This document shows positions 1 to 52,437 of a stretch of 64,000 nucleotides of DNA, piece after piece; position 1 is the first letter of the stretch, and each line of letters opens with the position of its first letter. Below the pieces are notes generated by a model that ran no database searches, was not told the origin of the DNA, and worked only from the letters and a program-made list of their open reading frames with translations. The position numbers and the translations under genes are program-made. Origin of the DNA: a phage. The DNA lies in assembly GCA_033580375.1 (NCBI GenBank), contig GCA_033580375.1_4527.1; one strand, written 5' to 3'.

Positions 1-173
1 ACCTTTAATGCATTGATAGATGGCATTGCATTATATTCGTTAACGTGGCTCTTTATAATTTTAAAGACATTTTTTGCCGGTCCACGCTCAAAATACTCAG
101 AATCCATATAAGGCCAGACCTTAGAAAAATAAGCCTGGTCGTATACGAGATGAGACAAAATAATTTCTACCAC
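1..173 (-). CDS. 41: Replicative DNA helicase gp41, N-terminal fragment (runs off window start)
   Basis: Minus-strand translation from GTG (171-173) gives VVEIILSHLVYDQAYFSKVWPYMDSEYFERGPAKN..., matching my recollection of the T4 gp41 N-terminus; AAGGAG SD at 178-183 (minus sense); synteny downstream of uvsX-40. Confidence 0.7.
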   Translation of the reverse strand, partial: MVEIILSHLVYDQAYFSKVWPYMDSEYFERGPAKNVFKIIKSHVNEYNAMPSINALK

Positions 174-182
174 GATAACTCC

Positions 183-524
183 TTAAAAGAATTTAAATTT
201 TTTCTTGGTTCGTTCATTAAAAGCTTGTTGTACCTGCATTGTAACACATTTTTCAACATGCGGCGCAAGTTCTGCTTTTCTGTCCTGGTCAAGAACTGCA
301 AAGTCCATTACGATTTTACCATCAACCCAGTCTAGTTTTGTAATATAGACTATATGATGAGAACCGTCTTCAAGTGTAATCAGAATCTCTTGAATGACGT
401 TTTCCATTGCTGAACGGATAATTTTAAGAGATTCATTAAACACTCGTTCTTTGCGAATGTCTTCCCCTTCCGAAGAAGGGGATTCATCAACGATTTCTAG
501 ATTTAAATCATCGAGATTATTCAT
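183..524 (-). CDS. 40: gp40-like head vertex assembly chaperone (113 aa)
   Basis: ORF track 183..545 begins with TTG; first ATG at 522-524 overlaps uvsX stop in an ATGAATAA arrangement; position between uvsX and 41 as in T4. Confidence 0.55.
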   Translation of the reverse strand: MNNLDDLNLEIVDESPSSEGEDIRKERVFNESLKIIRSAMENVIQEILITLEDGSHHIVYITKLDWVDGKIVMDFAVLDQDRKAELAPHVEKCVTMQVQQAFNERTKKKFKFF

Positions 525-1689
525 CGAAATCTTCCATTTCGTCAAGGTCGTTTTCTATATCTGCTGCAGATGGAGCATCAGAAGTTTTAACCGGAACTTT
601 AGTTGTTGCTTTGCAATTAATAAGGTCGTTAACTGCGTCATCAACTTCTTTAATAGAAGAGATAGCGCCTAGTTTATATTTAGTTTCAATTGCATCTCGG
701 AAAGGTTTGTGTTTAAACAACGGTCCCCAGAATTCTACGCAATCAGTAGCTTTAGCACGCCATGATTTCTCTTCACGAATCATTTCACCTGTTTCTTCGT
801 CAAGGAATTCACGAGCATACCAACCGGCTTTAGGTTTAACCACAAAACCAATTTCAGTTGCCATTTCTAACAAGCCACTGAATGGGTCAATACCGCCATC
901 AAAATTAACCGTGATCGGGAAAGTAGATTTCTCTTTAACAGTACGAGATTTTTCTGCTTTCAACGTGAAGTCATAACCGGTCAATTCTGTACCTTCTTTA
1001 ACCTGACGTTTAGAGATAAAGAATACAGTGTTAGCAGAGTAAAGAATACCTGTACCACCACCCATAATCTCTTTAGGATATAGTCCACCGATTTCCATTG
1101 CTGTATGGTTAATTGCAACACATGGAATATCTTTAATAGTCAGATACGGGGTCACAATACGGAACAGAGATTTAAGTGCCTTAGCACGAGACATATCACC
1201 TACGACTTTCTCGTTCAATGCATCTTCGGTTTCTTTCTTAGATGCAGTATTACCGATTGAATCGATAAAGATAATAACTTTATCACCGCGTTCAATAGCG
1301 TCAAGCTGATTAGTCATATCAACTTTAAGTTGTTCGACGGACTGAATTGGTGTGTGAACTACACGGTCTAAATCAACACCCATTGAACGAAAATAAGATT
1401 CTGAAGCACCGAATTCTGAATCATAGAACAAACAAATTGCATCTTTATATTTCTTCATATACGCTGCAACCATGGTCAGCCCAAACAATGTTTTAAAATG
1501 TTTAGAAGGTGCAGCAAAAATAGTCAAGCCTGATTGCAATCCTGCATTCAGAGCACCACCTAGTGCAATATTCAACATCGGAATACGAGTAGGGACTTCA
1601 TCGCGATTATTAAACAGCTTAGACTTAGTCAAGTCTGCAGTCATTTTAGAAGTAGAAGCTTTAATCAGACGAGATTTTAAATCAGACAT
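517..1689 (-). CDS. uvsX: UvsX recombinase (RecA-like), 390 aa
   Basis: MSDLKSRLIKASTSK... with RecA-fold motifs and strong resemblance to the T4 UvsX sequence as I recall it; ATG verified at 1687-1689. Confidence 0.95.
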   Translation of the reverse strand: MSDLKSRLIKASTSKMTADLTKSKLFNNRDEVPTRIPMLNIALGGALNAGLQSGLTIFAAPSKHFKTLFGLTMVAAYMKKYKDAICLFYDSEFGASESYFRSMGVDLDRVVHTPIQSVEQLKVDMTNQLDAIERGDKVIIFIDSIGNTASKKETEDALNEKVVGDMSRAKALKSLFRIVTPYLTIKDIPCVAINHTAMEIGGLYPKEIMGGGTGILYSANTVFFISKRQVKEGTELTGYDFTLKAEKSRTVKEKSTFPITVNFDGGIDPFSGLLEMATEIGFVVKPKAGWYAREFLDEETGEMIREEKSWRAKATDCVEFWGPLFKHKPFRDAIETKYKLGAISSIKEVDDAVNDLINCKATTKVPVKTSDAPSAADIENDLDEMEDFDE

Positions 1690-1757
1690 TGTATTTTTCC
1701 ATAGGCATCATTATATTTTACTCATGTTTAAAAGATAAGATGATTATATACTAATGA

Positions 1758-1766
1758 TTATACAGC
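1758..1766 (-). promoter_or_regulatory. Candidate extended -10 promoter (TGcTGTATAAT, minus sense) upstream of uvsX
   Basis: Minus strand reads ...AAATGCTGTATAATCAT... about 75 nt upstream of the uvsX ATG; no clear -35 seen. Confidence 0.35.
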
Positions 1767-1788
1767 ATTTAAAACTTTAAACAGGCTC

Positions 1789-2337
1789 TTAACGAGCCCA
1801 TTTGATGATTTCTGTAATCAAATCATTACGTTCGCTTGCATTAAATCCTATAACTTTGTTAGCACCATCATGATTAAGTAATTGATACGTTTGGATTTTG
1901 TTATGAATTGCAAACTCTTCAAAATGTGAAATGACTGTATTAAAACTGAGTGAAGACAAAGTAATAAGATCGTCTTCAAAACTTTCAGTCATTTCGTTAC
2001 GTGTTAAAATAATTGTGAACACGTCATGGTTTTGGCAAAGACGAACATAATCCTGCTCATAAACATCAAGAACCGAGTCCGCATCTTGTCGAATACGTCC
2101 ATAAACCCAGTTACTAATATATCCACGGTCTAACAGATAAATCTTAGTAGGGTCTAAATAATTCAACATCGTTTCGAAACAACCAACTTCATTTCGAGAC
2201 TTAACATCGAAACGTCCATCAACTGTTCGTTTAGGGAAATCAATCTTTACATATCTTTCACTAATTTCCATTATGACATTAATGAAAGTTGTTTTGCCGG
2301 CATTATCTGGGCCATCTACTAAAATAATTTTAGCCAT
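1789..2337 (-). CDS. P-loop nucleotide kinase-like protein (thymidylate-kinase-like), 182 aa
   Basis: Walker A GPDNAGKTT near N-terminus and LLDRGYISNWVYG (DRY-type motif of dNMP kinases); ATG at 2335-2337 with GAGGAA SD; occupies the locus where T4 has beta-gt. Confidence 0.6.
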   Translation of the reverse strand: MAKIILVDGPDNAGKTTFINVIMEISERYVKIDFPKRTVDGRFDVKSRNEVGCFETMLNYLDPTKIYLLDRGYISNWVYGRIRQDADSVLDVYEQDYVRLCQNHDVFTIILTRNEMTESFEDDLITLSSLSFNTVISHFEEFAIHNKIQTYQLLNHDGANKVIGFNASERNDLITEIIKWAR

Positions 2338-2338
2338 T

Positions 2339-3235
2339 TTATTCCTCGATTACGACATCTTCGTATTTAGGTATATTATACGGCGAAGAAATTAAAGCAT
2401 TAAAGTAGATGAACTCACCAAGACCTGGATGGAATACTTCTTCAGGATTTTCGAAATATTGAATCTTCGGACGTCCTTTAAGAATTTGATAGTACTCAGT
2501 TTTAGTTGGTTTAAAAATTCGAATCAGCGCTTCTTCAGGATACTTATTTCTGTCGAAGCTATTATTTGGATCGGTTATATAAAGTGGTTGTCCTAATTGA
2601 ATTGCACATTCAACCACTTGTTCAAAATGATAACACGGATCACTAATTCGAAATGGATGAAAAATACCATCTACATGAATAGGAGCCAAATCACCTACAA
2701 GACGCTGCATGATGGAAGGACGTATAACTTTCTGCGTTACGATAATCTTATTATCTGCGCCAGCGTTAACCAGCACTTCTTTTTGACGTTCATTCAACAC
2801 AGTAGTTTGAAGTGAACGATTAACCGACAACATGTCGGTTTTTAAGAATTCGTCAATATAAAAACGTGGTTTATTAGGGTCTGCAGTGATATTGAAATTG
2901 AATTCTACATCAAAAGCGCCGTCATATCCAGTGATATCTGTGATTAGAAAATCACAATCATAATAAGCAATTAATGAATCAACAACAAATTCATTTTCAG
3001 ACCAGAAATATTTACGAGTGTTATACGCGTTATCTTTATACCATAATGGAACAAACTTAAATTCTGGGAAAAGACGTTCACATTCTTTAATATCAGATGC
3101 ATTACGTGGATATGTAATCACATCACCCGGATTAGCACGGTGCAAATGAAGTTGGAAGTTGCCATCCTTAAGGATAGCATACTGTCCAGTTTCATAAGAC
3201 CGCATACTCAAGATTGGTACGCGGAAAATAGCCAT
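2339..3235 (-). CDS. Hypothetical protein, 298 aa (beta-gt locus; candidate DNA sugar transferase, unproven)
   Basis: Long intact ORF, ATG 3233-3235 overlaps gene 42 stop (TAATG); no family recognised by eye. Confidence 0.6.
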   Translation of the reverse strand: MAIFRVPILSMRSYETGQYAILKDGNFQLHLHRANPGDVITYPRNASDIKECERLFPEFKFVPLWYKDNAYNTRKYFWSENEFVVDSLIAYYDCDFLITDITGYDGAFDVEFNFNITADPNKPRFYIDEFLKTDMLSVNRSLQTTVLNERQKEVLVNAGADNKIIVTQKVIRPSIMQRLVGDLAPIHVDGIFHPFRISDPCYHFEQVVECAIQLGQPLYITDPNNSFDRNKYPEEALIRIFKPTKTEYYQILKGRPKIQYFENPEEVFHPGLGEFIYFNALISSPYNIPKYEDVVIEE

Positions 3236-35117: not shown

Positions 35118-35420
35118 TTAGATAGATGTAGGCTCTAATTTTATTTTCATGAACTCGGCAAATTGTCTGGCAGTTTTTATGCCTTGTTCCTGGCATTCAA
35201 ATGCATCATCACAGGGGCTATTTTTGTAATGCTTTGCCATATACTTATAAAATTTTTCAGAATTCTCAACATTTTGAATTTCGAACAAAGTATATACGTT
35301 TTTAATCCCTGATTCCATAAAGTTATCAAAGTACGGGTCAACATATGCAGTACCAACAATAGGAGTCGTTGCTGCAAAAAACCCCAGCATCGCCACAATG
35401 GCTATCGCTCTTAAGGCCAT
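35118..35420 (-). CDS. Hypothetical secreted/periplasmic protein, 100 aa
   Basis: N-terminal signal-peptide-like MALRAIAIVAMLGFFAATTPIVGTA. Confidence 0.55.
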   Translation of the reverse strand: MALRAIAIVAMLGFFAATTPIVGTAYVDPYFDNFMESGIKNVYTLFEIQNVENSEKFYKYMAKHYKNSPCDDAFECQEQGIKTARQFAEFMKIKLEPTSI

Positions 35421-35432
35421 ATAGGCCTCCTG

Positions 35433-35645
35433 TTAATTTTGGCCAGTATTTATTTTTCGCCTTTGAACGGCCTTAACATCTGCGAGGTATTTTTCCAGCT
35501 TGCGCTTGCGTGTATAATCAGCTTTAGAACCAGTTTGACGGATATCCTCGTTTAAATGAGAAATAGAATGTCCTAATTCTCTTCGGATTTCATCCAATTG
35601 GGTTACAGTAAGATTACGAAGTTGTCTTTCGTTTAATTGCTGCAT
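35433..35645 (-). CDS. Hypothetical protein, 70 aa
   Basis: ORF. Confidence 0.5.
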
Positions 35646-35672
35646 ATATACCTCTTGGTTAGATATTAGTAT

Positions 35673-36254
35673 TTATAACAACCCTGTCAAATCATTCCAA
35701 TGCTTCCGGCATAATGACACATATCTATCGGTATCACCAATTTCAATTTGTCCACCGTCTGTAATTGGAAGTCCATCTTCCGTGACTCTAGCTACCATAG
35801 TGGCCTTTTTACCACAATGACAGACACCTTTAAGTTCAACAAGCTTGTCGGCAATAGCCATTAATGCTTGAGAACCTTCAAATAGATTACCTTTAAAATC
35901 TGTTCGTAGTCCATATGCCATTACTGGCACATTGTATACGTCAACAATACGACTAAGTTGATACACCTTTTCAGTAGTTAAGAACTGAGCTTCGTCAACA
36001 AATACACAGTGAATATCCTTTTGTGCTGCAGCCCATTTATAGAATTCAAAGATATCCATGTCTTTTGTAATTATATTGGCATCCTGACGAATACCAATAC
36101 GAGAGACTATTTCACCTTTTGAATCACGAGTATCAATATCCGGTTTAAGAACTAATACACCCATGCCACGTTCTTTATAGTTATGTGCGGCAGTAAGTAA
36201 TGAAGCAGACTTACCAGCGTTCATTGCTGCATAAGTAAAAATTAAACTCGCCAT
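35673..36254 (-). CDS. tk: Thymidine kinase, 193 aa
   Basis: P-loop MNAGKSASLL, C-terminal Zn-binding CHCG...LCRKHW. Confidence 0.92.
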   Translation of the reverse strand: MASLIFTYAAMNAGKSASLLTAAHNYKERGMGVLVLKPDIDTRDSKGEIVSRIGIRQDANIITKDMDIFEFYKWAAAQKDIHCVFVDEAQFLTTEKVYQLSRIVDVYNVPVMAYGLRTDFKGNLFEGSQALMAIADKLVELKGVCHCGKKATMVARVTEDGLPITDGGQIEIGDTDRYVSLCRKHWNDLTGLL

Positions 36255-36263
36255 AAGAGTCCC

Positions 36264-36446
36264 TTATAATGAATTCACATAGTCAATGAGTTCTTGTTCT
36301 TTCCTGTCAAATGATTCCAACAACGCTTGATATTCTTCATCTGTTAAAGGAGCATATTCATCGTACGCATTGGTGGCTGCTTGCTCATCCAATAGGTCAT
36401 GGATAAGTTCGAACAGTTTAGCTTTCTCTTCTTTAGTCAATTTCAT
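36264..36446 (-). CDS. Hypothetical acidic protein, 60 aa
   Basis: ORF. Confidence 0.45.
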   Translation of the reverse strand: MKLTKEEKAKLFELIHDLLDEQAATNAYDEYAPLTDEEYQALLESFDRKEQELIDYVNSL

Positions 36447-36670
36447 TTAGGTTCACCTTCTTTAACGAAATCTGGGTAAGGGTAAAATCCTGAGTAAAAC
36501 CCTTCACCTTTGTGATTGCTACAACCTTTGTTCGAACAGTAGCACCAATAATCAAAATCACAAGCCATTTCATCATTGCATAAAGCAAAAACTACAGGCC
36601 ATTCACATCTTTCGCATTTAGCACCTGTAAGAATTTTTGTTTGACTCATAACCATTTGACCTGCATGCAA
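36443..36670 (-). CDS. Hypothetical Cys-rich protein, 75 aa
   Basis: Multiple Cys (CERCEW...CNDEMAC...CYCSNKGC). Confidence 0.5.
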   Translation of the reverse strand: MHAGQMVMSQTKILTGAKCERCEWPVVFALCNDEMACDFDYWCYCSNKGCSNHKGEGFYSGFYPYPDFVKEGEPK

Positions 36671-36858
36671 TATTCTTCGACATGCTTTTTACGACCTTTC
36701 TTATCAATAAAGGTGTATTCCATAAAGCGTCCATGATAACGACGTTCAACATCGTGAGGGGTGTTAATAGGACACTTAGTCTGACGAATTTCTTCCCATT
36801 CACGAATAATAACTGCTTTATTCTTTGGGTCATACGGGTGAGGATAATGCACATTCAT
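36646..36858 (-). CDS. Hypothetical protein, about 70 aa
   Basis: ATG 36856-36858 in ATGA overlap with macro gene stop. Confidence 0.45.
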   Translation of the reverse strand: MNVHYPHPYDPKNKAVIIREWEEIRQTKCPINTPHDVERRYHGRFMEYTFIDKKGRKKHVEEYCMQVKWL

Positions 36859-37352
36859 AATAATGGTTCCCAATCAACAATCACAATTTCTAGTTTAGTG
36901 GAATATGTATCAAGAATTTCTTCGATAACGTCCCAGTTTCCACCACCGATACCTGCACCAATTCTTGGCATATAAATTACAGGCTTTGTTATCTTATTCT
37001 TTCCGAATTCATTTAATTCTATTATACAATTCATTAAAGCAGAGTACTCAAAATTAGGTCCCGGCTCAAACTGTGTATAAAGATTAAAGCAATAAGCTTT
37101 ATGGGTCTTAAAATATTTTTCATAAACTGAATAAGACCCGAGTTTAGACTCGTCTCCGAATTCGGTTTGAAGTTTATCAGCTTCCAGAATTTTTGGATAA
37201 GCCTTTGCTAATTGTCCTGCCACACCAGCGCCCATTGTATGAAAACAATTACACCCATGAGCAATATTGTTACCTTTAGAAAACAGGGCGACAATATCGC
37301 CCTTGATATAGTTTTTAATCACTTGCTGCAAGTCCTCTAGTATAAGAGTCAA
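36855..37352 (-). CDS. Macro-domain protein (ADP-ribose binding/processing), 165 aa
   Basis: NIAHGCNCFHTMGAGVAGQL and MPRIGAGIGGGNW match macro-domain signature blocks. Confidence 0.75.
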   Translation of the reverse strand: MTLILEDLQQVIKNYIKGDIVALFSKGNNIAHGCNCFHTMGAGVAGQLAKAYPKILEADKLQTEFGDESKLGSYSVYEKYFKTHKAYCFNLYTQFEPGPNFEYSALMNCIIELNEFGKNKITKPVIYMPRIGAGIGGGNWDVIEEILDTYSTKLEIVIVDWEPLL

Positions 37353-37662
37353 CTAGACGGTCCACCATAGAATTGCATGCTGCCTTATCTTTAGGTTCCG
37401 CCACCGAGCATTCTAATATTTGCCATTTTTTATGATATCGTTTAATTAAGGTAGACGCCTTGAACCTACTAGACGCCCCATCTTTTTCTCCGTCTTTATA
37501 TGCGTATAACAATTTTTGTGAAAAATCTACTTTACACTCTTGACTTTTACCACAATAATCAGACGCCGTTCTGTTTGTATACTCCGTTACATCAGTATAT
37601 GTAGTATTAGCAAGAGCGTTAAATGAAACCAAGCCAACTATTAAAGCCAACATTTTGGTCAT
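37315..37662 (-). CDS. Hypothetical secreted protein, 115 aa
   Basis: Signal-peptide-like N-terminus MTKMLALIVGLVSFNALA. Confidence 0.55.
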   Translation of the reverse strand: MTKMLALIVGLVSFNALANTTYTDVTEYTNRTASDYCGKSQECKVDFSQKLLYAYKDGEKDGASSRFKASTLIKRYHKKWQILECSVAEPKDKAACNSMVDRLVDSYTRGLAASD

Positions 37663-38201
37663 TCTTTTACTTCCAGTAGTTTATTTGATTTAAGGTAATT
37701 AGCCTTTTCTAGGACTTCAGAAGCATATTTACTTCCAGCACTTGTCTTCCATCCCGCATTATATGAGGATATAGCTTTTCTTATATCCCCGTTATGTATA
37801 TTTAACCAATAAGAAAATTCGATATAAGCCCATCTGGCTGAATTAGACCGCTTAGATAGCATTTTCTTAATTTGGGCATCAGTCATATTATAACCAAGCT
37901 GGTTAATTCTTGCCCTCATTGTTGGTAGATAGTTTTGGAACATTCCATACGCATGGTGACCTTTCTTATCTTTAAGATTAACACCGGCAGATGATTCCTG
38001 CCATAGTATTGCGGCCATTATGTATCCAAGTCCTTTCTTATGCATATTTTCATGCGTTTTAAATTTTCCGTCCTTAGAAAACTGTTCCCCAAACTGATAA
38101 GCATAATTCAAGTTATCGAGTTGGACATTACTAAAAGTATGCTCGGAGCTATGTGCTGATAACGAAAGAGCAAATAGACCAGCGAGTAGTGCTTTTCTCA
38201 T
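37659..38201 (-). CDS. Periplasmic lytic-transglycosylase-like protein (SLT domain), 180 aa
   Basis: Signal peptide plus AILWQESSAG resembling the SLT catalytic E-S motif. Confidence 0.55.
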   Translation of the reverse strand: MRKALLAGLFALSLSAHSSEHTFSNVQLDNLNYAYQFGEQFSKDGKFKTHENMHKKGLGYIMAAILWQESSAGVNLKDKKGHHAYGMFQNYLPTMRARINQLGYNMTDAQIKKMLSKRSNSARWAYIEFSYWLNIHNGDIRKAISSYNAGWKTSAGSKYASEVLEKANYLKSNKLLEVKE

Positions 38202-38209
38202 GTTTACCT

Positions 38210-38668
38210 CTAGATTTTAATAACTGCTTTAGAAGCTTTTCCTGGTAGTCGTTTACTGTTAATAATAGCCATTCTACATTGAAGAGTCTTCATTTTGAAT
38301 GCCGGATTTTCGCGACAAACTGTAAGGCCTAGCCAAAGATTTCCATCAGTTATTTCTAAACGGCCTGGGCGGTATTCGACACCTTCGACAAAATCTTCAT
38401 CAACATCTGGACGTGCCGGCATTGATAAAAATTCTGCAACTTCTTTAACGTGATTTTTTACTTTACGAAATAATTCAAAAACGTAATTCTCATCTATTTC
38501 TCTCTGGATGGCACGATCTAAGAGATGTTGAGAATACTTGATATGAAAGCCTGGTAGTCCAAGAGACTTTGCAGCATCTTTTATACCGGCATTTATTTTG
38601 CGGAACTCCGTTTCAAAGATTCGACGGAGTTTATTACGGCGGATAAAAACTTCCGAATTGATAGTCAT
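38210..38668 (-). CDS. regB: RegB site-specific endoribonuclease, 152 aa
   Basis: MTINSEVFIRRNKLRR... resembles T4 RegB as recalled; preceded by early promoter. Confidence 0.7.
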   Translation of the reverse strand: MTINSEVFIRRNKLRRIFETEFRKINAGIKDAAKSLGLPGFHIKYSQHLLDRAIQREIDENYVFELFRKVKNHVKEVAEFLSMPARPDVDEDFVEGVEYRPGRLEITDGNLWLGLTVCRENPAFKMKTLQCRMAIINSKRLPGKASKAVIKI

Positions 38669-38694
38669 TTTGATTTCTCCTCTAGTTGACAGGT

Positions 38695-38725
38695 CTATAG
38701 TAACACAACTAGAGGAGAAGTAAAC
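38695..38725 (-). promoter_or_regulatory. Early promoter (GTTTAC-17/18-TAnnnT)
   Basis: gacaggtctatagtaacac...gtaaac. Confidence 0.45.
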
Positions 38726-38729
38726 TACT

Positions 38730-38945
38730 TTATTGATAAAATGGAGTTAAAGCCCAAGATTCTTTAGATACCATATCGGCGAAATGCCTCATCTCTTCGA
38801 TTTGGCGACGACGCTGGTCAGCATAGTCTTCTTCGCCTTCTTCTTTACAATCTTCAAGGTCTTCTTCAAGATACTTTAAGTATTCACTACAAATTTTGTT
38901 GATCTTTTCCTGGAAGTCCAATAACCCAGTAATAGTAGAAGCCAT
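38730..38945 (-). CDS. Hypothetical acidic protein, 71 aa
   Basis: ORF. Confidence 0.5.
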   Translation of the reverse strand: MASTITGLLDFQEKINKICSEYLKYLEEDLEDCKEEGEEDYADQRRRQIEEMRHFADMVSKESWALTPFYQ

Positions 38946-39210
38946 TAGTATTTTTCCTCAGGTCGAAATACTGCGCGGCATGCCCACATGCTGGCTTCTT
39001 TTAGATGTTGCTTAGCATACTTAAGAGCCTGCACTGCATCCATATCTTCTTTGGTTTGTTGCTCTGTTTCATTTTCTTTCAAGATATATGCTTCTTCAAT
39101 CAGAGCATCAAACAACAATCCAAGACGGACTTCAGCATCTTTAATAGCGTTCACTTTACCAATTTTATCATCGGTATGCGGCTTGTAGCCTTTGATGTCT
39201 TCAATCGACA
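38945..39210 (-). CDS. Hypothetical protein, about 88 aa
   Basis: ATG 39208-39210 with GAGGAAA SD (ORF track start 39379 is an extension). Confidence 0.5.
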
Positions 39211-39425
39211 TAAGGAATTTCCTCATCGGTGGCAAGGTCATATTCGACCAATTGGATAGGCTCATTAATACCATATCCACGTACAGTGATATCAGTTGTC
39301 GGATAGTTTCCAGTAATATCACCCATTCTAAATGCTTCAATGAATGATTGCTCGCCTGAGCAACTAAACCAGGCGGCAAAACATTTTAAAACATCTTCAG
39401 ACCCTTCTATAATCAATTTAGCCAT
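39201..39425 (-). CDS. Hypothetical protein, 74 aa
   Basis: ORF. Confidence 0.5.
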   Translation of the reverse strand: MAKLIIEGSEDVLKCFAAWFSCSGEQSFIEAFRMGDITGNYPTTDITVRGYGINEPIQLVEYDLATDEEIPYVD

Positions 39426-52280: not shown

Positions 52281-52357
<77 letters not shown>

Positions 52358-52363
52358 AATATA

Positions 52364-52437
52364 TGACCCAGACCAGATTCGAACTGGTAACCTTTCCCTT
52401 ATGAGGGGACTGCTACTAACCGTTGAGCTACAGGGCC
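52364..52437 (-). tRNA. tRNA with CAU anticodon (Met, or Ile if lysidine-modified), 74 nt, no encoded CCA
   Basis: Hand-folded: acceptor GGCCCUG/CUGGGUC (one U-U mismatch), anticodon loop CUCAUAA, T-arm ACCAG-UUCGAAU-CUGGU. Confidence 0.7.

Follow-up and report, generated by a model that had tools for sequence, protein, structure and literature searches.

A T4 tk.4 ortholog with an SCO6735-like active site as a probable phage countermeasure against DarTG2

Between tk and regB of a T4-like phage lies a small gene that, from the letters of the DNA alone, had been taken to encode a macrodomain protein, a candidate for removing ADP-ribose marks or degrading ADP-ribose-derived signals. The question raised by this locus is what such a protein would do for the phage, and whether its active site is equipped for it. 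The stretch of DNA analyzed here (the window, 64,000 nucleotides) belongs to a T4-like (Straboviridae) myovirus. The gene is already known, since its macro/A1pp domain had been recognized by 2006 and its role against DarTG2 reported in 2025. At the level of sequence, the present comparison adds that the active site has a Gln84 configuration like that of SCO6735, and that the protein is not an ortholog of the PhiKZ protein bearing the same name, AdfM.

Gene boundaries and genomic context

The minus-strand open reading frame 36855..37352 described in the sequence-only reading exists, and its translation holds both blocks quoted there, GCNCFHTMGAGVAG and RIGAGIGGGNW. The start at 37352 did not hold, since it is simply the first TTG in the longest frame called mechanically; a GTG located 30 nt downstream (37322..37320) is favored. 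The extension from the TTG lies inside vs and is annotated in no relative, while the GTG aligns with the ATG of T4, and the TTG was rejected. At the homologous position, T4 shows an ATGA overlap with the vs stop codon and GAGGA upstream. A 468-nt coding sequence is annotated in T4, phiE142 and the O157 typing phages, and the starts annotated in KP869101 and NC_055709 agree with GTG 37322, which is most likely the true start of a protein of 155 residues. The overlap of this GTG with the vs stop codon suggests that translation of tk.4 is coupled to that of vs, and the three overlapping genes vs, tk.4 and tk.3 probably form a translationally coupled chain. Coordinates of all features are collected in Table 1.

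Table 1. Positions of genes, active-site segments and signals around tk.4 in the window.
Feature	Position	Strand	Remark
tk.4/adfM coding sequence	36855..37322	-	155 aa + TGA stop, single macrodomain
GTG start codon (probable)	37320..37322	-	Overlaps vs stop codon (GTGATTAA)
Shine-Dalgarno-like AGAGGA (putative)	37333..37338	-	10 nt upstream of the GTG
Extra 30 nt of the longest frame (10 codons, from TTG)	37323..37352	-	3' end of vs, other frame
ATG of tk.3	36856..36858	-	Overlaps tk.4 TGA stop (ATGA)
Residues 22-36, HGCNCFHTMGAGVAG	37215..37259	-	His22, Cys24, Asn25 and first glycine-rich (phosphate-binding) loop
Gln84 codon CAG	37071..37073	-	Position of TARG1 K84, DarG K80, SCO6735 Gln85
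Residues 119-130, PRIGAGIGGGNW	36933..36968	-	Second glycine-rich (substrate/diphosphate-binding) loop
Hairpin AGGGCGAUAUUGUCGCCCU followed by GUUUUCU	37285..37303, U-rich tail to ~37276	-	Codons 7-13 of tk.4
regB	38210..38668	-	
vs.1	37659..38201	-	Two genes upstream of tk.4
vs	37315..37662	-	Annotated as valyl-tRNA synthetase modifier; PHROG 1256, E=1.8e-35
tk.3	36646..36858	-	Downstream neighbor of tk.4; DUF7202, E=1.6e-37
tk	35673..36254	-	

Comparison of the window reading frames with the T4 annotation confirmed the placement in the tk-regB interval. The minus-strand order regB, vs.1, vs, tk.4, tk.3, tk.2, tk.1, tk is exactly that of T4, and the vs/tk.4/tk.3 synteny is the same in T4, KP869101, phiE142, ESh25 and fPS-65. 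The 1.9 kb around tk.4 shares 97.8% DNA identity with Escherichia phage phiE142 and about 96% with Mosigvirus records, and 657 phage records match this region.

The description of the flanking genes also required correction. The supposed secreted neighbor is actually vs, although a signal-peptide-like N-terminus is indeed present in its product (MTKMLALIVGLVSFNALA followed by N), together with four conserved cysteines, in the window and in T4 alike. Such an N-terminus would not be expected in a protein whose supposed target is a cytoplasmic enzyme. In T4, vs was the most depleted gene in minimal medium (HIDEN-SEQ preprint, bioRxiv 10.1101/2025.11.20.689424). The supposed lytic-transglycosylase-like flank is vs.1, which is not adjacent to tk.4; its SLT match falls below the Pfam cut-off (19.2 vs. 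21.3 bits), it has no NCBIfam match, and its PHROG is of unknown function. The weak SLT match had already been published in 2006 (PMC1524935). With a signal-peptide-like N-terminus (MRKALLAGLFALSLSAHS), Vs.1 is a conserved and probably periplasmic protein.

A scan of positions 35400-39400 for sigma-70 promoters gave 10 sites against a mean of 13.7 in shuffled sequence, that is, fewer than expected by chance, and therefore no promoter is claimed. Apart from two tRNA genes, tRNA-Arg(TCT) and tRNA-Met(CAT), Rfam and ARAGORN searches over the 64 kb found no Rfam family at gathering score. These are the only tRNA genes in the window and lie side by side at 52281..52437 on the minus strand, far from tk.4.

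Within the 5' end of tk.4, a consensus scan and folding revealed a terminator-like hairpin of -13 kcal/mol (z = -2.83). T4 and Shigella phage ESh25 carry the identical hairpin, Salmonella phage S16 and one Klebsiella phage lack it, and the record of Yersinia phage fPS-65 labels it 'terminator'. It could serve as a vs/tk.4 attenuator or affect RNA stability, or it could simply result from conservation of the codons for KGDIVALF. The Tk.4 protein of ESh25 is only 58.7% identical overall to the window protein, yet the first ~45 nt of its gene and the 3' end of vs before it hardly differ from T4 (ESh25 section 560..680). This pattern suggests a recombination junction in the 5' end of the ESh25 gene, near the hairpin.

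Fold, family and active site

The assignment as a macrodomain was borne out by Pfam, PHROG, AlphaFold2 and Foldseek, all in agreement. The protein matches Pfam Macro (PF01661) over profile positions 2-117 of 118 with E=3.6e-6 and 27.4 bits, above the gathering score of 22, and PHROG 335 with E=1.4e-66. The AlphaFold2 model, computed from an alignment of 54 relatives, has a mean pLDDT of 95.3 and a pTM of 0.90, and presents the three-layer alpha/beta macro fold with two glycine-rich ADP-ribose-binding loops. Foldseek gave a probability of 1.00 to TARG1, Poa1p, Bt_1257 and DarG. The nearest structural neighbors are those of the ALC1-like class (TARG1, DarG, SCO6735 and Bt_1257), clearly ahead of MacroD-type and viral macrodomains. 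By sequence, the top PDB match is Bt_1257 (E=5e-11), and SCO6735, DarG and TARG1 are significant too. The window protein is thus a single-domain macrodomain of 155 residues and of the ALC1-like class.

Alignment with T4 Tk.4 (NP_049723) showed 132 identical residues out of 155 (85%) over the full length and without gaps (E=2e-105). The window gene is the ortholog of T4 tk.4, renamed adfM for anti-DarT factor, macrodomain. Both share the same neighbors, the same start position over the vs stop codon and all conserved active-site residues; they differ by 23 substitutions and in the start codon, which is ATG in T4 and GTG in the window. One of the differences falls in the second glycine-rich loop, where position 127 is Gly in the window and Lys in T4, Gly being the majority residue (109 of 120 relatives).

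The window protein shares 99.4% identity with an 'ADP-ribose binding module' protein of phage vB_EcoM_EP32a, and GenBank proteins 97-99% identical to it are labeled 'macro domain protein', 'ADP-ribose binding module' or 'phosphatase'. The note on tk.4 in the T4 record reads 'contains A1pp phosphatase motif', and the A1pp/macro domain match of tk.4 orthologs was published in 2006 (PMC1524935). By tblastn, the Tk.4 family is present in 2,845 of 50,697 phage records, mostly Straboviridae that infect Escherichia, Klebsiella, Salmonella, Acinetobacter, Aeromonas and Vibrio. Genomes of Felixounavirus, Vequintavirus, Ackermannviridae and Pakpunavirus size and jumbo phages carry it as well. Members of the family are variously labeled 'phosphatase', 'macro domain protein' or 'hypothetical protein'. 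No DarT neighbor was found beside two relatives labeled as bacterial or metagenomic; both contigs are phage-like and are uninformative on the origin of the family. A contig of a MAG labeled Cetobacterium sp. carries a phage-like block (69..3159) with DUF4326, T4-type RNA ligase 1, an unknown gene, Macro and a helicase. Such RNA-repair gene neighbors may hint at extra substrates in some Tk.4 lineages.

Since missing catalytic residues had been named as the finding that would count against ADP-ribose hydrolysis, the family profile was aligned by hhalign and MAFFT to reference sequences from PDB alignments (the TARG1 reference being identical to PDB 2LGR), and conservation was evaluated over 120 relatives (identity down to ~40%). 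His22 is conserved in 116, Asn25 in 118 and Gly33 in all 120 of them, and Pro119, Gly122 and Gly124 are nearly invariant. Asn25 aligns with Asn22 of DarG and Asn27 of SCO6735; the substitution N22A impairs DarG, and N23A lowers the activity of PhiKZ AdfM (PMC13309987). The block of residues 119-130 aligns with PRIGCGLAGGxW of SCO6735/Bt_1257. The catalytic Lys84/Asp125 dyad of human TARG1 (OARD1) is replaced by Gln84/Gly126 in the window protein. Position 84 is Gln in 119 of the 120 relatives and pairs with Gln85 of SCO6735 in both hhalign (E=5e-15) and MAFFT. In DarG, K80A inactivates the enzyme; in SCO6735, the Q85A mutant is inactive (PMC9411070). The result of this check is therefore two-sided: the lysine of DarG and TARG1 is absent, whereas the residue that is essential in SCO6735 is present and invariant. 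The active site of the tk.4 product looks intact, because the lost lysine is replaced by the glutamine essential in SCO6735, a proven thymidine-ADP-ribose hydrolase. In addition, the Tk.4 family has invariant residues of its own, namely Gly23, Cys26, Asp49 and Tyr82.

SCO6735 (Streptomyces coelicolor) and Bt_1257 (Bacteroides thetaiotaomicron) have in common with the window protein the Gln, the His-x-Cys-Asn motif and the PRIGxGxxGGxW loop, but their identity to it is only 23-32%. Their 'mobile loop' is five residues longer, and the Tk.4 family shows a gap of 5-6 residues directly after Gln84, so that its loop has the length of those of TARG1 and DarG. The longer loop is a hallmark of the subclass, linked by the SCO6735 authors to high activity on DNA (PMC9411070). 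SCO6735 outpaces both DarG and TARG1 in clearing the ADP-ribose that DarT places on thymidine, leaves guanine adducts untouched and, in competition, prefers DNA over protein substrates (PMC9411070). It is encoded by a chromosomal stress-response gene and is strongly basic, whereas the window protein is phage-borne and mildly acidic, with a pI of 5.6. DarG and TARG1 are basic like SCO6735, and PhiKZ gp104 is acidic (pI 5.05). Net charge was considered as an indicator of DNA binding and discarded as not discriminating, since gp104, a proven DNA enzyme, is acidic too.

DarG, the antitoxin of DarTG2 (PDB 5M3E, 5M3I and 7OMU), has its catalytic Lys80 in an FPTK motif where the window protein has Gln84, carries a C-terminal DarT-binding domain that has no counterpart in the 155 residues of the single-domain window protein, and is encoded in an operon with darT, whereas tk.4 is flanked by vs and tk.3. 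The sole NCBIfam match of the window protein is antitoxin_DarG (NF048014), at 32 bits vs. a cut-off of 250 and over positions 4-146 of 338, which cover the macro part only. Lacking the lysine, the DarT-binding domain and a darT neighbor, the protein is not a DarG, and the reading as an orphan DarG antitoxin was rejected on the lysine, the second domain and the NCBIfam score.

PhiKZ gp104 resembles the window protein in being an acidic, phage-borne single macrodomain of similar size directed against DarTG2. It removes DarT2-made ADP-ribose from DNA in vitro and was named AdfM (Cell Rep 2026, PMC13309987). However, gp104 is a genuine DarG-type protein, with the lysine of FPTK retained and E=9e-25 against DarG of M. 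tuberculosis, while the Tk.4 profile has Gln and matches gp104 by hhalign at E=4e-10 only. Because gp104 is DarG-like with the FPTK lysine, Tk.4 carries Gln and their mutual match is weaker, the two AdfM proteins are not orthologs and sit on separate branches within the ALC1-like class.

Proposed function and alternative explanations

Replication is blocked by DarT2, which places ADP-ribose on thymidine in single-stranded DNA, and the mark is removed by the cognate antitoxin DarG2, a macrodomain. When T4 transposon insertions were screened on E. coli expressing DarTG2, depletion reached significance for one gene only, tk.4 (bioRxiv 10.1101/2025.11.20.689424). A clean deletion sensitized T4 to DarTG2 and the gene was renamed adfM in the same preprint, dated 20 November 2025 (bioRxiv 10.1101/2025.11.20.689424). 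The knockout challenge on a host with an ADP-ribosylating defense, which the sequence-only reading had proposed, had thus already been performed on the T4 ortholog. Removal of ADP-ribose marks, the first of the two activities considered there, gains support from an ortholog that is 85% identical and needed against DarTG2; for the second, degradation of ADP-ribose-derived signals, no support was found. The functional evidence comes from one preprint and concerns T4, not the window phage, and the authors of that preprint, which contains no enzymology, consider that enzymatic removal of ADP-ribose from DNA 'seems likely' (bioRxiv 10.1101/2025.11.20.689424). AdfN, the product of T4 gene 30.3, is the functional counterpart of AdfM but has an unrelated NADAR fold; this orphan antitoxin-like ADP-ribosylglycohydrolase of T-even phages neutralizes a DarTG system, acts on DarT1 guanine adducts and gives no protection against DarTG2 (bioRxiv 10.1101/2025.11.20.689424).

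With fold, family placement, orthology and active-site configuration established for the window protein, it is considered quite probable, by analogy with SCO6735, that the tk.4 product hydrolyzes DarT2-made ADP-ribosyl-thymidine on phage DNA by a lysine-independent route. Upon infection, host DarT2 would place ADP-ribose on thymidines of single-stranded phage DNA and block its replication. The ADP-ribose moiety would then be bound in the cleft between the two glycine-rich loops of the tk.4 product, and hydrolysis of the ribose-thymine bond would free ADP-ribose and restore the DNA. PhiKZ gp104, which clears DarT2 marks from DNA in vitro, sets a precedent for such an activity in a phage macrodomain. 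In this proposed mechanism, Gln84 would position the distal ribose and a water molecule held by the backbone would act, as in SCO6735 and not by the lysine route of DarG/TARG1. The window phage would be expected to show the same phenotype as T4, with enzymatic protection and ADP-ribosyl-thymidine in DNA as the substrate. Counted against this proposal are the absence of the DarG/TARG1 catalytic lysine and of the longer mobile loop, and the acidic pI.

The activity of the yeast Poa1p type implied by the 'phosphatase' labels would make the protein a small-molecule enzyme, an ADP-ribose-1''-phosphate phosphatase or O-acetyl-ADP-ribose deacetylase clearing by-products of RNA repair or sirtuins. The legacy label rests on the domain name alone, and fold similarity and a shared histidine are the only points that back this activity. 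His22 aligns with His23 of Poa1p and Thr29 with Ser30 (the roles of both Poa1p residues being taken from the titles of PDB mutant entries), with Thr29 conserved in only 69 of the 120 relatives. The histidine does not discriminate between families, having counterparts also in SCO6735, Bt_1257 and TARG1. In the alignment, Poa1p has neither Gln nor Lys at position 84, whereas the invariant Gln84 of the Tk.4 family matches a DNA-ADP-ribose hydrolase. To our knowledge, tRNA repair by T4 Pnk/Rnl1 leaves no 2'-phosphate, and for this reason no Appr-1''-p would be expected. Since the T4 knockout phenotype is in addition specific to DarTG2, a DNA-modifying system, a small-molecule role is judged improbable. 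An enzyme that acts mainly on proteins (or RNA), erasing Glu/Asp marks left by host toxins or tuning the modifications made by the phage's own Alt, ModA and ModB, with protection from DarT2 as a side activity, is likewise unlikely. T4-type phages encode three ADP-ribosyltransferases, which counts in its favor, but Alt, ModA and ModB modify arginine, and we know of no macrodomain of the ALC1-like class that cleaves this linkage. TARG1 and SCO6735 both cleave Glu/Asp-linked protein ADP-ribose besides DNA adducts, yet SCO6735 favors DNA over protein when both compete (PMC9411070). Loss of tk.4 insertions was specific to the host with DarTG2, and the gene is thus dispensable on plain K-12. By analogy with these relatives, erasure of protein ADP-ribose is possible as a side activity of the tk.4 product.

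Protection could also be achieved with no hydrolysis at all, by binding DarT2 or shielding ADP-ribosylated DNA. The absence of the canonical catalytic lysine is in line with such an inhibitor, and SCO6735 mutants can block DarT without catalysis; among the dead variants SCO6735 Q85A, DarG K80A and TARG1 K84A, the strongest inhibition through interaction with DarT was that of SCO6735 (PMC9411070). Against it, active-site residues are almost perfectly conserved over 120 diverse phage relatives, the pattern expected of an enzyme, the protein has one domain in 155 residues with nothing equivalent to the DarT-binding part of DarG, and the isolated DarG macrodomain carrying K80A did not inhibit DarT. 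A purely non-catalytic inhibitor is accordingly very improbable, although a non-enzymatic contribution to protection is possible after the example of the SCO6735 mutants. The least probable of the alternatives, and one hardly to be expected, is that the protein degrades or sequesters immune signals derived from ADP-ribose, for example the cyclic ADP-ribose isomers of Thoeris.

Naming and evolutionary meaning

The name AdfM was given independently to two non-orthologous proteins. This collision could mislead the transfer of annotations, and it conceals that evolution arrived at two separate solutions. In thousands of phage records the T4-type gene is still labeled 'phosphatase' or 'hypothetical protein'; anti-DarT2 macrodomain (AdfM) is at present the most fitting label.

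With Gln in place of Lys, a short mobile loop and invariant residues of its own, T4-type AdfM may stem from a separate macrodomain lineage that was recruited against DarT2 independently, a proposal made tentatively and which may well prove wrong. If true, there would be a third active-site configuration by which thymidine ADP-ribosylation is reversed, and it would be convergent with that of the DarG-type 'AdfM' of PhiKZ. A wider substrate range that, as in SCO6735 and TARG1, includes Glu/Asp-linked protein ADP-ribose might explain why the family is found in some 2,800 genomes of phages with many different hosts.
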